Shown one piece after another: positions 1-11,623 of a stretch of DNA of 15,168 nucleotides. Origin of the DNA: an archaeon. GTDB lineage: Archaea; Asgardarchaeota; Thorarchaeia; Thorarchaeales; Thorarchaeaceae. A program made the translations under genes and the position numbers. Below the pieces are notes generated by a model, which had not been told where the DNA came from, ran no database searches, and saw nothing but the letters and a program-made list of their open reading frames with translations. The stretch spans positions 1 to 15,168 of the forward strand of contig JAJRZD010000029.1 in the NCBI GenBank assembly GCA_024275415.1, written 5' to 3'. Within the stretch, counting starts at the first letter, position 1. Every line of letters starts with the position of its first letter.

Positions 1-56
1 CTAGAGAAATCCTGGGCCCCGAGTACCTGCCCTACCGTCAGGAGAAGCAGCTGTAA
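1..56 (+). repeat. Repeat copy 1: 3' end of an acyl-CoA dehydrogenase-like gene (AREILGPEYLPYRQEKQL*); may be the end of an intact gene lying upstream of the window
   Basis: CTAGAGAAATCCTGGGCCCCGAGTACCTGCCCTACCGTCAGGAGAAGCAGCTGTAA, 56/56 identical to 7919-7974; stop TAA at 54-56. Intactness of the upstream gene cannot be seen. Confidence 0.9.
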
Positions 57-61
57 ATCAG

Positions 62-88
62 TATGAAGGGGCCACGTGCTCCTTCGTA
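62..88. terminator. Hairpin after repeat copy 1 (possible bidirectional terminator or recombination-site element)
   Basis: TATGAAGGGGC-CACGT-GCTCCTTCGTA forms an 11-bp stem (2 G-T pairs), followed by the T-rich tract TCTTTCTCTTTT; it lies between two convergent stop codons. Confidence 0.55.
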
Positions 89-107
89 TCTTTCTCTTTT
101 TAGGCAA

Positions 108-300
108 TCAACTGCAGTCGGCATCCGATCCGTATTCCCTTTCTTCGAGTGCTCTTTTGATGACATGCTCGATCGTGCTGATAGCCAATGAATGGCAGAG
201 GGCGTAACAGAGCCACCAAAAGAGGTGTCAGGTACGGAGTAACGGCCTGCGATTTGTGAATGTCCAGTCAACCGGTGTCCCTCTCTAGTGTTGCATATGT
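108..300 (-). pseudogene. Degenerate homolog of the small HTH-like gene at 8025-8225
   Basis: Minus strand 179..108 reads STIEHVIKRALEEREYGSDADCS*, versus STIEHAIKRTLPEKEYNLDTNDI* (13/23 identical, same length). Upstream SFGGSV resembles SYGAST in another frame. The 5' limit is approximate. Confidence 0.65.
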
Positions 301-371
301 CGTTCAAAAGCACCTTCTCAGTTTGTCCTCTAGCTTGATGACTCGCAGGCATATTACTGGTGATCTCTCGT

Positions 372-1016
372 TCATAATGAGAGAGCTAAGACAAGTAGAA
401 CGACGATTCCAACTAGATACATAACGAAGTTGTAGATCGTGTATGGCACACTTCTACGAGTCAGTTGGGCAGATCTTTCCGTTGTTTCCTCAGCCGCGAA
501 AAGAGGGAGCGTATCGAGCTTCACTTTGACTCGAGCGGCATATTGTTCTGATTCATTACGTTGTTGCGTTTCGAGGTAGAGCAAAACAGGAAGGACAAAC
601 GCAGAATAAAGAACAGGCACTGCCAACAGGATCGTAGGACTGTCAAGTGCAGATAATGCAGACAGTATGGACAAAAAGGGAATTAACATGCCGAGAGGGA
701 ATAGAAACGGAAGAATGAACATTTTGATGTATGAGAACTCGAGAGGCATTTCTAGGTTTCGGACCAGAGTTGCAAGATGTTGTTTTACGCCTGAAGCAAG
801 GTCGGTATCTCGTATATTTAATATCAATGCGCCATCTTCAGAGAGAACTGTGTCGCTGACAGGTTTCCCAGATGATCCTATCTTCTCGAATTCGATCCTC
901 ACCGAGTGGAGTGGAAAATCTTCCAGCTTGTCTAGTCCAAGATCCCGATATGATGACAGAACTAGTTCTTCAGATTGATCAATACTCAATGACTTAAGCG
1001 GCTCTTCTCTATTCAC
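372..1016 (-). CDS. Hypothetical membrane protein (214 aa, soluble N-half, about 3 TM segments)
   Basis: Long ORF with hydrophobic runs FILPFLFPLGMLIPFLSILSAL, ILLAVPVLYSAFVLPVLLYL and IYNFVMYLVGIVVLLVLALSL; no family motif recognised. Confidence 0.75.
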   Translation of the reverse strand: MNREEPLKSLSIDQSEELVLSSYRDLGLDKLEDFPLHSVRIEFEKIGSSGKPVSDTVLSEDGALILNIRDTDLASGVKQHLATLVRNLEMPLEFSYIKMFILPFLFPLGMLIPFLSILSALSALDSPTILLAVPVLYSAFVLPVLLYLETQQRNESEQYAARVKVKLDTLPLFAAEETTERSAQLTRRSVPYTIYNFVMYLVGIVVLLVLALSL

Positions 1017-1285
1017 TGAAATCTCCTGAAAGTGATCCTTATCCGTAATTGCCTGAAAATGACTGAATTCTCATTTAAATAATACGGCATTTCCAGATCT
1101 GTTGCAAAACTTATGGGATGGATCATGAGAGGTAGTTTGCACGCCCCGCATTATATACCACCACCTTGAGTAATGTTTCGATGCCTCGTCTGTTGTCACG
1201 CCTTGACCTCAAGACCCCTCCCAACTTCACCTTCACAGCCTCTCTCACCGACTCCTCCTCCCGTACTGGTATCTCCTCAGGGTCT

Positions 1286-2425
1286 CTACGGTACAATCAA
1301 GGAGTCTAACTGTTCGATAGTTTCTTCTATGAAGCGTTCTAGTTCATCGCTTTCAAGGGCGGCCAGATGGTACTCGAAGTACCTTTGTCCAAGAATCTCA
1401 GGCTTCTCACCAAGCACCCCTTCGTACGATTTGAGGAGGGCAATCAACAAAACTGCTCCAAGTGCATAGCAGAGTCCAAGGAGCCATGATCCAAAGTTTG
1501 AAAATGCAAATGGGAGGGATGCGATGAATGTTGCGATAATTACAGTCGTTAATGCTGTCCGCAGGAGCATACTTGTCCTTTTCCCAAAGTGTGCTAGAGC
1601 TGCTCCAAGCACAATGAGTCCTACGAGGGCTGAAGCAGCTGCCAGTGTAAAGTATACATCTGCCTGCAATGGGGGAGAGATTGGCTGAGCAATATAGATG
1701 AGCAACGGGACGAGCCAGAGAAGGACACACTTTGCGGTTGCTAGTCTGGTTTCCATTGATTTTGCGTATTCAATTGCATTTCGCCGGTTTGGTAAAGAAT
1801 CTGCTTGCTGTCTTGAACGCAAGCATTTGCGCAAGGCGACGAAGCGTTCCTCGAACAGAACGCGATTGCTATTTGTCACAGTTATGAAGATCCAGTATGC
1901 ACCAAAGGCTCCGAAGAAGTTCAGGGTGACATCAGAAAGGACTGCTACGAGATAGAACTCCCAGACTCGTACTGCTTCGATGGTGATTGCCATTGTTGTG
2001 AATATGCCTGTTGGCAATCCTATTCCCAGTGCCATGAAGGCGCTGAGGACGATAGACCCGACCATCCATGTAGTCCTGTTCTTGGGCTGCCCATTCTGTA
2101 TCCATATCACTACGCTATCGAGCCAGAGGAATGTGAGAGAGCTTGTGATAAGTGAGATGCCAATGTAGAGGTATGTGTGCATATCAAGGAGCATGATCAT
2201 ACTTGCAAGTGTCAACCCCATCACTCTGATTACACATAACCCTCTTCCTCCTGAAACCCAGGCATTCCGTAGCAAAATCACCAGGTTAGGTACTCCAATC
2301 CTTGAAACTGGGGCAACGAATATCTCGTTGAGAAATCTCAAATTCTGCCTCCCAAGTATCTTTTCAAACCTCATGATTGCTTCATTCCGACGGTCTTCGT
2401 CGAGTGCGCAGCCTGCCATCGCCAT
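1286..2425 (-). CDS. Hypothetical polytopic membrane protein (379 aa)
   Basis: Many hydrophobic segments in two clusters separated by a charged loop; acidic C-terminal tail. The start codon is ~14 bp from repeat copy 2. Confidence 0.75.
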   Translation of the reverse strand: MAMAGCALDEDRRNEAIMRFEKILGRQNLRFLNEIFVAPVSRIGVPNLVILLRNAWVSGGRGLCVIRVMGLTLASMIMLLDMHTYLYIGISLITSSLTFLWLDSVVIWIQNGQPKNRTTWMVGSIVLSAFMALGIGLPTGIFTTMAITIEAVRVWEFYLVAVLSDVTLNFFGAFGAYWIFITVTNSNRVLFEERFVALRKCLRSRQQADSLPNRRNAIEYAKSMETRLATAKCVLLWLVPLLIYIAQPISPPLQADVYFTLAAASALVGLIVLGAALAHFGKRTSMLLRTALTTVIIATFIASLPFAFSNFGSWLLGLCYALGAVLLIALLKSYEGVLGEKPEILGQRYFEYHLAALESDELERFIEETIEQLDSLIVP

Positions 2426-9965: not shown

Positions 9966-10043
9966 TACACCTTCTACTCTTTCAATCAAGCACTGCCGTG
10001 CAGAATGTTGTCAATTACAGGCTTCCAGATATCATCATGACGA

Positions 10044-10439
10044 TCAAGAAGTTCCCATCATCTGTGCATGATGGTTCAACGCAAACATCTCCGATATCTC
10101 CTCTGGCAACTGTTTGAGATACTCGAAACTTGATTTTGAGACCATGAGAAAGTTATCGATAATATCAATCATCGTAAGGGGGAATTGTTGTAGGTTCATT
10201 CGTTCTACCCCAGTCGCAAAACATTCGCGCACTTCTGTATCTAGCTGGCTCTTTCCCTGACCCTAGCGATTGAAGATGATATCCATATGCCATGTAAGAT
10301 GACCAAGAATCCGACTTGTTGGATTGAGCTTTTGTGTAAGTTGGTACATGAGATCTTCAGGCTTCAATCTCATAATGGGCCTCAAAACATTCCATTGCGC
10401 GAGAGCAAATGTATCAATTGCGAATTCCTTGAGGCTCAA
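10044..10439 (-). pseudogene. DinB-family protein with an in-frame TAG and a degenerate C-terminus
   Basis: TTG at 10439 after AGGAG: MSLKEFAIDTFALAQWNVLRPIMRLKPEDLMYQLTQKLNPTSRILGHLTWHMDIIFNR*(10263-10265)GQGKSQLDTEVRECF... The L.PEDL.YQ...NP...ILGHL motif is DinB-like. Confidence 0.65.
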
Positions 10440-10587
10440 TATCTGATTCTCCTATTTGGATCCTCTACCATCTAATATCAGACTATTATGCAAGTCTTTT
10501 ACTCGCTCGTTCCGAAAAATACATCATCATAGATTAAATAACCGCCGATTGCAGAAAGTAAAAAAACTAGCCAGTCGTATCATCAGG

Positions 10588-10698
10588 ATGGTAGTCAGGA
10601 TCGGAACCATGGGAAAACGTCTTGGGGTGTCACCTTCGACCTTGAAGAGGTGGGAACGCAAAGGGGCATATGTACCATGTAGTAGGACAATAATGTAG
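10588..10698 (+). pseudogene. MerR-type HTH remnant (IS607 TnpA N-terminus or excisionase-like)
   Basis: RIGTMGKRLGVSPSTLKRWERKG fits the IG..A..LGVS..TLRRWE..G pattern; no intact resolvase domain follows. Confidence 0.55.
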
Positions 10699-11262
10699 TG
10701 CAGGTCGTGCGTACAAGCTGTGGGCCGTCCCACCAATGATGCCATGACCTATGCTGACCGGGCCCTGTCCGCATACCAGGGCTCACTCCAGGCTTCTCCT
10801 TGCGGAGGTGACAAGTTCAATAGTATGCGCAGAAGAGGGTAATGTATGGTGTTAGACAGGATCAATATTGGTGACGGCTAACCTGACAGGAAAATTGCAT
10901 GGAACGGTGGAGCATCTGGAGGTCGTGTCGCGGACACTCGAGTTGTTATGCACCACAAGATATGCGCGTCTTGCTCACTGAAACAATAAGTTGCTTGGCA
11001 AAGAAACATATTGATTTGCCAAGGCTGGAGTCCATATGCTGTGTGTTAGGAGTTATTCAATTACTCTCCTTTTTTGACTCCTGCTCTCGTGTTTGTCAAT
11101 GCACAGAATGATCATTCATTATATTGGGAGGATTGGTGAACACGACACCTTTGAAGATGAGGTTAAGAGGAACTCAAAATCCCTGATGGCAATAGGAAAG
11201 CACATGTACATATAGGAACCATATGAATCATTAGCAGGACGACACGGAAAGGTGATGCTCTC

Positions 11263-11487
11263 ATGCGTGTGGATTATGATAAAGTGGCAGATTCTGTCTA
11301 TTTCAGGCTCAAGGGAGAAAGGGTGGTAGAGAGTGTTGAGATCTCTGAGGGAGTGATCATTGATTTTGACGAAAGAGGAGAGATTTGCGGGATTGAAGTG
11401 CTTGCGTTTTCCAAGAGGAAGCTGGACTTGAACCAACTGGTCAAATGTGGGGATGGAGAACTGGTCTCTAAGGTTGCCACAACGTGA
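11263..11487 (+). CDS. DUF2283-family antitoxin-like protein (intact)
   Basis: MRVDYDKVADSVYFRLKGERVVESVEISEGVIIDFDERGEICGIEVL; AGGTGA upstream. Confidence 0.9.
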   Translation: MRVDYDKVADSVYFRLKGERVVESVEISEGVIIDFDERGEICGIEVLAFSKRKLDLNQLVKCGDGELVSKVATT

Positions 11488-11560
11488 TCATCTTCACAAG
11501 ACATGCGTTGGAGAGGATGCGACAGCGGGATATCTCACGCGATGATATCCTCAAAGCGCT
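11484..11560 (+). pseudogene. DUF4258-like toxin N-terminal fragment
   Basis: MIIFTRHALERMRQRDISRDDILKAL; the ORF then loses family character and runs antisense into the methyltransferase gene. Confidence 0.75.
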
Positions 11561-11623
11561 TCAAGATACAACGGATAGATTGGGACACCACATTTCAACC
11601 ATTGATACAAGTCCGCTTGCGGT

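Follow-up and report, generated by a model that had tools for sequence, protein, structure and literature searches.

What assembles a series of unrelated genes behind a single metabolic gene, each group set off by another copy of that gene's own end? The question is posed by contig JAJRZD010000029.1 (assembly GCA_024275415.1) of an archaeon of the family Thorarchaeaceae (Asgardarchaeota), the whole of which, 15,168 nucleotides (nt), was analyzed and is called the window below. Repeat search and alignment reveal five same-strand copies of the last ~22 codons and stop codon of an acyl-CoA dehydrogenase (ACAD), bounding modules of 1.3-3.1 kb, with stop codons at 56, 2476, 4866, 7974 and 9293. Thorarchaeota carry, behind this one particular ACAD, a gene-cassette array that is hypervariable, and the window represents part of it. 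By analogy with the mobile open reading frame (mORF) elements of fungal mitochondria, we consider it somewhat probable (roughly 0.55) that such cargo arrays are built by repeated homing of an endonuclease gene with replacement of the ACAD 3′ end.

The repeated end of a dehydrogenase gene

The repeat is the 3′ end of the ACAD gene, because the true 3′ end of an intact, 412-amino-acid (aa) parent matches it, terminal residues included. The parent lies elsewhere in the source assembly, at G000:C49:171-1406 on the minus strand (G-, C- and L-numbers denote genome assemblies, contigs and related loci, respectively; G000 is the 3.5-Mb source assembly and the window is its entire contig C5). All five copies are on the plus strand. 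By repeat alignment, copy 1 (1-56) holds the last 17 codons and stop and is cut by the contig start, which therefore marks an assembly break at the repeat. Copy 2 (2451-2476) is shortened to 26 nt, copy 3 (4801-4866) comprises 21 codons and stop, copy 4 (7817-7974) is the longest, reaching back to ACAD residue ~362 of 412 with one frameshift, and copy 5 (9225-9293), the last in the window, has 22 codons and stop. Copies 1 and 4 do not differ over 56 nt, and copies 3 and 5 are 96 and 87% identical. The initial annotation, made from the letters of the window alone, had described these five same-orientation copies, attributed them to an ACAD 3′ end in a probable Asgard archaeon, seen an accretion hotspot of unrelated cargo and noted that the window has no recombinase gene; all of this is borne out, the last point by a Pfam scan of the window's open reading frames (ORFs). 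It had also extended the array to 11620, but a profile search finds no ACAD-end copy between 9294 and 11620, so the repeat-marked array stops at 9293.

Outside the window, BLAST and an nhmmer profile found three further copies in the whole assembly: the intact gene on C49, the last bases of contig C13, and C124:82-147. With so few additional copies the repeat is clustered, as a search called for in the initial annotation was meant to decide, and a dispersed repeat or miniature inverted-repeat transposable element is rejected, all eight copies in the genome being on four contigs tied to the ACAD locus. C124 is 97% identical to window positions 7945-8205 and C13 is 98% identical to positions 9099-9293, C13 carrying an entire ABC-transporter cassette. 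Each matches the window on one side of the junction only, a sign of variant arrays in the population. There is no tRNA or known RNA at the site.

Are such arrays confined to one genome? A 27-nt degenerate pattern representing the last eight ACAD codons, scanned exactly against GTDB species representatives, identified 75 stretches in 41 assemblies, all of them Thorarchaeota-type metagenome-assembled genomes. The pattern has no match in IMG/VR, and a viral or plasmid carrier of the repeat was rejected on this basis. Across 87 loci an nhmmer profile found 282 copies (216 unique) with a median spacing of 1.05 kb, co-oriented in 86 of the 87. In several genera an intact ACAD ortholog is followed by same-strand fragments of its own end (e.g., G035:C34 and G033:C85); elsewhere, co-oriented fragments form arrays on contigs without an intact ACAD, as in G033:C47 (eight copies) and G013, where three copies stand mid-contig (G013:C10:35-43 kb), distant from the intact gene, as an orphan array. 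The closed chromosome CP070761.1 (L026, ~3,060,155-3,065,163) has five copies in 5 kb, no intact ACAD ortholog and the endonuclease gene described below as a remnant only. An assembly artefact is rejected, since 41 assemblies made independently show the same arrays, among them this closed chromosome and contigs of 78-669 kb. No conserved gene was found upstream of ACAD, in the position that intI would take, and the neighbors vary by genus; clusters of tetratricopeptide repeat (TPR) proteins and of a 138-aa membrane protein, considered as ACAD neighbors, proved to be cargo.

The anatomy of the units is consistent across loci. ACAD homology opens sharply at the consensus TCGTCATGG, ~66 nt ahead of the end of the stop codon, and by tblastn the left edge of the fragments falls at ACAD residue 391-393 in 100 of 191. 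Past the stop come 10-20 nt, then a GC-rich hairpin whose sequence varies but whose pairing is retained, then a T-run. Boundaries were mapped with copies from different loci that share one flank only, tracking identity across the junction. In 13 pairs with a common upstream cassette, identity is 83-91% across the fragment and falls to background (~0.35) from the stop codon; in 22 pairs with a common downstream cassette it is 73-95% from position +1, hairpin included, and at background within the fragment. These comparisons establish that a cassette consists of the hairpin, the cargo (between one and three genes, on either strand) and an ACAD end (the last ~66 nt plus stop), the fragment being inherited with the left-hand cassette and not the right-hand one. 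Identical cassettes have different neighbors across species, as a comparison of module order among relatives, also suggested at the outset, was to reveal; modules therefore move as units. Cassettes 91-98% identical are shared between species whose ACAD genes are only 73-90% identical, which, if the homing proposal made below holds, would offer a means of tracing how genes pass between uncultured Asgard archaea.

The 171 unique cassettes have a median length of 1083 nt, of which the largest ORF fills 64%; this ORF is in the sense orientation in 80 and antisense in 91. Proteins encoded across the arrays include GNAT acetyltransferases, nitroreductase, alcohol dehydrogenase, DUF362 proteins, flavodoxin/ferredoxin and glutamine synthetase. 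Other cargo includes ABC transporters, β-helix and β-propeller surface proteins, TPR proteins, DUF2283/DUF4258 pairs and a HEC-01-like defense pair.

Mismatches to the consensus at codon positions 1, 2 and 3 occur at 0.07, 0.03 and 0.39 in intact ACAD genes and at 0.11, 0.08 and 0.28 in the last 11 codons of the fragments, a pattern indicating that the fragments keep a coding footprint overlaid with decay. This footprint shows them to be apparent former functional gene ends. Between resident ends and duplicates at the same locus there are 167 synonymous and 179 non-synonymous codon differences, badly decayed copies included; the two duplicates at locus L118 have synonymous to non-synonymous counts of 8:0 and 9:1. 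The intact genes themselves bear a related signal. Compared with their nearest relative, the last 78 nt are less similar than the preceding 288 nt (0.90 falling to 0.77 and 0.89 to 0.78), and in L039, which lies beside an endonuclease remnant, identity drops from 0.87 to 0.69, the break falling near -75 to -66. The 3′ ends of intact ACAD genes thus look as though they have been replaced.

The convergent LAGLIDADG-HTH gene

What, apart from the ACAD end, do the units have in common? The DNA past copies 1, 3 and 4 of the window, and past the copy on C124, is homologous, and its opposite strand encodes a small helix-turn-helix (HTH) peptide. A profile of this peptide finds the same family in several genera, directly past ACAD genes or fragments and convergent with them, and also matches the end of C49 beside the intact ACAD and the stretch past copy 2; remnants of the gene thus adjoin copies 1, 2, 3 and 4 of the five in the window. 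A longer member, from L050, was used to reach database homologs. A HMMER search returned 241 family representatives, mostly of 500-1500 aa, in which a 267-aa module is C-terminal. Four members exceed the 22.5-bit cut-off for Pfam LAGLIDADG_3 (PF14528), namely P0002 (25.2 bits), P0005 (34.6), P0009 (38.1) and P0028 (35.7), the window's remnants being too short for scoring. Modules of the HTH_23, HTH_28 and Tnp_1 type lie upstream of the LAGLIDADG module in several members. In 30 aligned homologs, G19 and D24 of motif 1 and G144 and D147-G148-D149-G150 of motif 2 are invariant, so that both LAGLIDADG helices close with a conserved acidic residue. An AlphaFold model (predicted local distance difference test score, pLDDT, 96.1) has the two-domain α-β-β-α-β-β-α fold and gives 67 matches in the PDB at E ≤ 0.001, led by PI-SceI/TliVMA, I-DmoI, I-SceI, I-AniI, I-Tsp061I and WhiA; the sequence has no significant match among PDB sequences. 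Pfam matches, motifs and predicted fold together support assignment of the family as two-motif LAGLIDADG endonucleases with HTH domains, for which we infer nuclease activity and a target site.

The position of the gene is constant. It lies 50-110 nt past the ACAD stop, and all matches are convergent (13 of 13 with the family profile, 10 of 10 in another search) and nearly all within ~130 nt of a repeat unit, unlike other cargo, which is randomly oriented. The gene or its remnant stands beside an intact ACAD in C49, L039 and L050, and in L109, L114 and L115 the gene converges with an intact ACAD or an ACAD 3′ end cut by the contig edge. The minimal unit is seen on the 669-kb contig of L118, where the ACAD gene (5830-7251) is followed by a hairpin, a 606-aa endonuclease gene (7352-9172, minus strand) and an ACAD duplicate (~9283-9360), and beyond these by cargo and another duplicate. 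L115 has a unit of 8.8 kb between the intact ACAD end and a fragment, containing the endonuclease gene (941 aa; 8001-10826), a HerA-like ATPase gene in its operon, and three other genes. Both loci thus have an endonuclease gene beside the functional end with a displaced duplicate beyond.

The ATPase gene of L115 (5420-7999; HerA_C, 23.7 bits), of HerA/FtsK-like type, is directly upstream of the endonuclease gene. Homologous ATPases are cassette genes in L033 (1-2304) and L035 (5856-7147), where no endonuclease gene was seen, although in L033 it would fall beyond the contig start. The ATPase is possibly a helper or a defense partner. The ACADs of L115 (10934-11003) and L039 end in ...QKGQFD and ...QKQQFD instead of the usual ...QEKQM, and their neighbors are a full-length endonuclease gene and a 107-aa remnant, respectively; the ...QFD ending may mark a target variant that resists cleavage.

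The family is patchy, with one to six matches in each of 26 of 41 family genomes and many members truncated, as would be expected of a selfish gene that invades and decays. Some members lie outside the ACAD context. A 577-aa paralog (G000:C7:33043-34812; L110:5083-6816) is co-oriented with and directly past etfB/etfA, which encode the electron-transfer flavoprotein, the redox partner of ACADs; no duplicated etfA 3′ ends were found beside it. Duplicated gene ends were likewise not evident beside the endonuclease copies of L116, L117, L119 and L120. In L116 (G025:C1:515-519 kb), 72-nt coding repeats resembling leucine-rich repeats adjoin three family matches (a 400-aa ORF and two remnants).

Homing, recombination or integration

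How could an endonuclease gene give rise to such arrays? Homing endonucleases are usually viewed as wholly selfish genes that ride in introns, inteins and the genes of organelles. The mORF elements of fungal mitochondria, described for Allomyces macrogynus atp6 and for Glomus atp6, atp9, cox2 and nad3, are a precedent (PMC3630166). In these, an ORF for a LAGLIDADG or GIY-YIG endonuclease arrives at the 3′ end of a conserved gene together with a foreign C-terminal coding piece, the native piece persists downstream and the two copies differ mostly synonymously, and for Allomyces the enzyme's part in driving mobility has been demonstrated (PMC3630166). The Thorarchaeota loci share with them an endonuclease gene at the 3′ end of a gene and a displaced duplicate of that end downstream. 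They differ in their host, an archaeal chromosome, in the extra HTH modules and occasional HerA-like partner of the enzyme, in the iteration of the event into arrays of up to eight or more duplicates and in the unrelated cargo of the units.

Under repeated homing with 3′-end replacement, the builder would be a free-standing two-motif LAGLIDADG endonuclease with a C-terminal HTH domain and N-terminal HTH repeats, sometimes with a HerA-like ATPase in its operon. It would cleave endonuclease-free ACAD alleles near codon ~390, where the fragments have their sharp left edge. Repair would then copy the donor's ACAD end, its terminator, its endonuclease gene and all DNA up to the donor's displaced ACAD end, which would act as the right-hand homology arm and be co-converted, and the recipient's old 3′ end would be shifted downstream. 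Repeats of the cycle would stack cassettes while endonuclease genes decay into remnants like those of the window, leaving non-autonomous cargo cassettes still movable with help in trans. Given a co-converted right arm, fragments would travel with the cassette on their left and the apparent junction would fall at the stop, where homology ends. Homing as the mechanism, the direction of growth and the timing of the endonuclease's part are what we infer from these loci. With rather less than even confidence, we further propose an integron-like capture platform, in which cassettes would be stacked, shuffled and swapped between species by the multi-HTH LAGLIDADG endonuclease, with its HerA-like helper, and break repair; the ACAD 3′ end would be both landing pad and portable homology arm, and decayed cassettes would be mobilized in trans by whichever copy is active.

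Several observations weigh against homing as the builder. The cleavage activity and target of the enzyme are so far putative, and WhiA, a regulator that does not cut, has the same fold and an HTH domain. In the mitochondrial precedents the endonuclease genes are co-oriented with the host gene and often in frame, whereas here they are convergent, neither co-oriented nor in phase. A recognizable remnant is found in just ~5% of repeat units, and most cassettes and some whole array-bearing genomes (G030) have no intact endonuclease. The drop in identity at intact ACAD 3′ ends is modest in most pairs. Linkage to the left-hand cassette requires the further assumption that co-conversion takes in the whole 66-nt right arm. 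Finally, the last ~30 nt of the fragments are more conserved (0.76-0.84) than neutral decay suggests, as would also be expected if the stop codon carried a site recognized at the DNA level.

Could the host's own machinery have sufficed? In this account direct repeats arose when the ACAD end was duplicated once, long ago, perhaps by the endonuclease, and general host recombination has since added, removed and traded DNA between the repeats, both inside a cell and among related cells, no dedicated enzyme being needed. The initial annotation had raised homology-assisted capture of DNA from relatives as its alternative, and in that respect came closer to the mechanism favored here, but it lacked the LAGLIDADG endonuclease as a probable driver. 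Junctions are resolved only to the last ~30 nt, which are also the best-conserved homology; copies 1 and 4 are identical between flanks merely 77% alike, as gene conversion would give; variants C13 and C124 match the window on one side of the junction; and many arrays have no intact endonuclease. Yet 66 nt at 60-85% identity make a poor substrate for recombination between species, and this account leaves unexplained the hairpin that opens nearly every cassette, the repeated independent endonuclease remnants, differing in sequence, past many copies, and the full-length endonuclease genes lodged between an ACAD end and its duplicate in distant genera. We think it unlikely that plain homologous recombination built the arrays, and it may well contribute to their reshuffling.

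A resemblance to integrons is harder to sustain as a mechanism. Here a recombinase encoded elsewhere, acting as in integrons or in integrative mobile elements exploiting Xer (IMEX), would join a ~120-nt site (ACAD end and hairpin) of circular cassettes to the ACAD 3′ end with crossover at the stop codon, the endonuclease gene being frequent cargo. The cassette boundary does fall within ~8 nt of the stop codon, fragment conservation climbs towards it, a hairpin of variable sequence lies past nearly every copy, one clade has a 5-7-5 inverted repeat across the junction, and cassette sizes and cargo types are like those of chromosomal integrons. Archaeal integrons are known and enriched in Asgard genomes, and are defined by canonical attC and IntI (PMC9668308). 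Like these and clusters of attC sites lacking an integrase (CALINs), the Thorarchaeota arrays have small, mostly single-gene cassettes split by a recurring element of ~100 nt, reshuffling between genomes, orphan arrays and accessory cargo such as acetyltransferases, toxin-antitoxin-like pairs and oxidoreductases (PMC9668308). They differ in that the recurring element is a coding 3′ end, the anchor is a metabolic gene and not attI, R and L boxes are absent and ORFs lie in both orientations, where integron cassettes mostly have promoterless ORFs of one orientation.

The recombinase itself was sought in several ways. No integrase, resolvase or transposase was found by Pfam among the window ORFs or representatives of recurrent ORF clusters, and phmmer searches with the integrases of G000 had no match among the 949 ORFs of the 87 arrays, none of which has a recombinase, IntI-type or other, inside or adjoining it. 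Tyrosine recombinases (PF00589) occur in only two of six genomes searched, G000, where they are on other contigs unlinked to the array, and G013; they are absent from G030 (a complete genome with a five-copy array), G033, G035 and G037. The complete relative with a five-copy array has neither tyrosine nor serine recombinases genome-wide, and small resolvases and Y1 (IS200-type) transposases were unlinked to arrays or absent in the genomes searched. Folding of seven units revealed no attC-like long palindrome, only the short hairpin past the stop; z-scores of array copies ranged from -1.9 to +1.1, none significant, and the intact C49 end alone folded well (z -3.75). Recombinase-driven capture also gives no reason for the footprint by codon position, for differences that are synonymous only, for a sharp left edge at codon ~391, for the 3′ end of L039 being mosaic or for the constant place and orientation of the endonuclease gene, and we regard it as even less probable than recombination by the host.

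Elements that integrate at the 3′ end of a tRNA or protein gene typically yield direct repeats of the gene end, tandem accretion and a coding footprint, as in the arrays of integrative and conjugative elements (ICEs) and cis-mobilizable elements (CIMEs) at fda in Streptococcus thermophilus. The Thorarchaeota arrays share these hallmarks, duplicated ends bounding tandem modules of which some are non-autonomous, but the initial annotation's proposal of tandem integration at an ACAD att site, here by elements that later lost their integrase genes, is scarcely credible, as the 171 unique cassettes hold no integrase or integrase remnant, their median of 1.08 kb is too small for such elements, and with a crossover fixed at the left edge, where the duplicated block starts, each fragment would be inherited with right-hand DNA, the opposite of what is observed.

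Repeated homing with 3′-end replacement also has parallels among free-standing enzymes. In T-even phages, free-standing homing endonuclease genes home without introns and co-convert their flanks. The Thorarchaeota gene is similarly intergenic and adjoins its putative target, and break repair would co-convert neighboring DNA, but in the phages gene ends are not duplicated and cargo arrays do not form. WhiA shares the two-domain LAGLIDADG-derived fold followed by HTH and is among the top structural matches; it is a transcription factor without the catalytic acidic residues, whereas both Asp residues are invariant in the Thorarchaeota family. The Heimdallarchaeal element HeimM2 carries a homing-endonuclease-like gene in a different layout. 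The searchable literature yielded no earlier account of this locus, nor of cassette arrays built by an endonuclease. What is new relative to known gene-end-replacing homing-endonuclease elements is the archaeal chromosome, the convergent multi-HTH enzyme, the iteration into arrays and the cargo. If the proposal holds, homing endonucleases would be able to build large cargo-bearing cassette arrays in cellular chromosomes, so that a pan-genome reservoir like that of integrons could be reached by a second route, independent in mechanism, and this in the archaeal lineage group closest to eukaryotes, with a layout seen before only in mitochondria. The family would then be one of multi-HTH meganucleases with long sites, whose natural target can be predicted.

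The cassettes of the window

Cassette 1 opens with a GC-rich hairpin and T-rich run (62-88, plus strand), followed by an endonuclease-gene remnant convergent with copy 1 (111-227, minus strand; C-terminal HTH part; family HMM E 1e-6) that is 77% identical at the nt level to 7919-8122. Its cargo (372-2425, minus strand) is two multi-pass membrane protein ORFs (372-1016 and 1286-2425) with no family match. At copy 2 the hairpin has been lost and a convergent remnant of the HTH part adjoins the repeat (2436-2576, minus strand; family HMM E 7e-13). Cassette 2 (cargo 2947-4773, plus strand) encodes an AAA_21 or HEC-01A-like ATPase (2947-4236) and a HEC-01B-like partner broken into two ORFs (4241-4525 and 4513-4773), probably by a frameshift; with an E-value of 1e-50 for the ATPase to PADLOC HEC-01A, this is a candidate defense pair. 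The earlier outline of the cargo (an ATPase pair, toxin-antitoxin modules, membrane and secreted proteins) holds, with the ATPase and its broken partner, the DUF2283/DUF4258 pairs and the membrane and secreted proteins.

Past copy 3, a hairpin (4876-4899) leads into a degenerate remnant of the endonuclease gene 3′ end (together 4876-4973, plus strand) with 70% nt identity to 8008-8084. The cargo of cassette 3 (5015-7701, mixed strands) has three parts: a DUF2283/DUF4258-type two-gene module (5015-5364), 84% identical to a second copy at 11195-11557 beyond the last ACAD copy, a prenyltransferase-like protein (5358-6746, minus strand) and a 320-aa secreted-looking protein (6739-7701, minus strand). 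Cassette 4 begins with a hairpin (7981-7999, plus strand) and an endonuclease-gene remnant encoding the C-terminal HTH domain (8028-8261, minus strand; ORF 8025-8225), 97% identical to C124:82-342. Its cargo is a 202-aa ORF without a family match (8595-9203, plus strand), the end of which overlaps a stretch (9099-9224, minus strand) holding the initial ~105 nt and upstream region of an ABC-transporter ATPase gene. The end of C13, which has the complete gene, matches this stretch at 98% identity; the stretch represents a cassette that was truncated or else a variant between strains.

Copy 5 is followed by a hairpin (9310-9325) and the motif CTGATTAG (9354-9361), together spanning 9310-9361 on the plus strand. 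The motif stands 55-69 nt past the ACAD stop in 16 of 216 units, one intact gene among them, and totals just 38 occurrences in 552 kb; carriers include L074, L026, L025, L057 and L100. Beyond it (9362-11753, plus strand) are small genes, some with homologs within the array of a related genus, encoding a DUF2283 protein (9771-9965), a MerR-type HTH protein (10456-10698) and a DUF2283/DUF4258 pair (11263-11753). The final 141 nt of the window (15028-15168) are identical, by k-mer overlap, to the end of contig C78, into which the contig therefore probably runs on. A stretch of ~280 nt overlapping the MerR-type ORF (10551-10833) has copies 78-87% identical on at least 10 other contigs of G000, C55, C37, C119, C89, C8, C29 and C24 among them; it represents a small gene present in several copies or else a mobile module.

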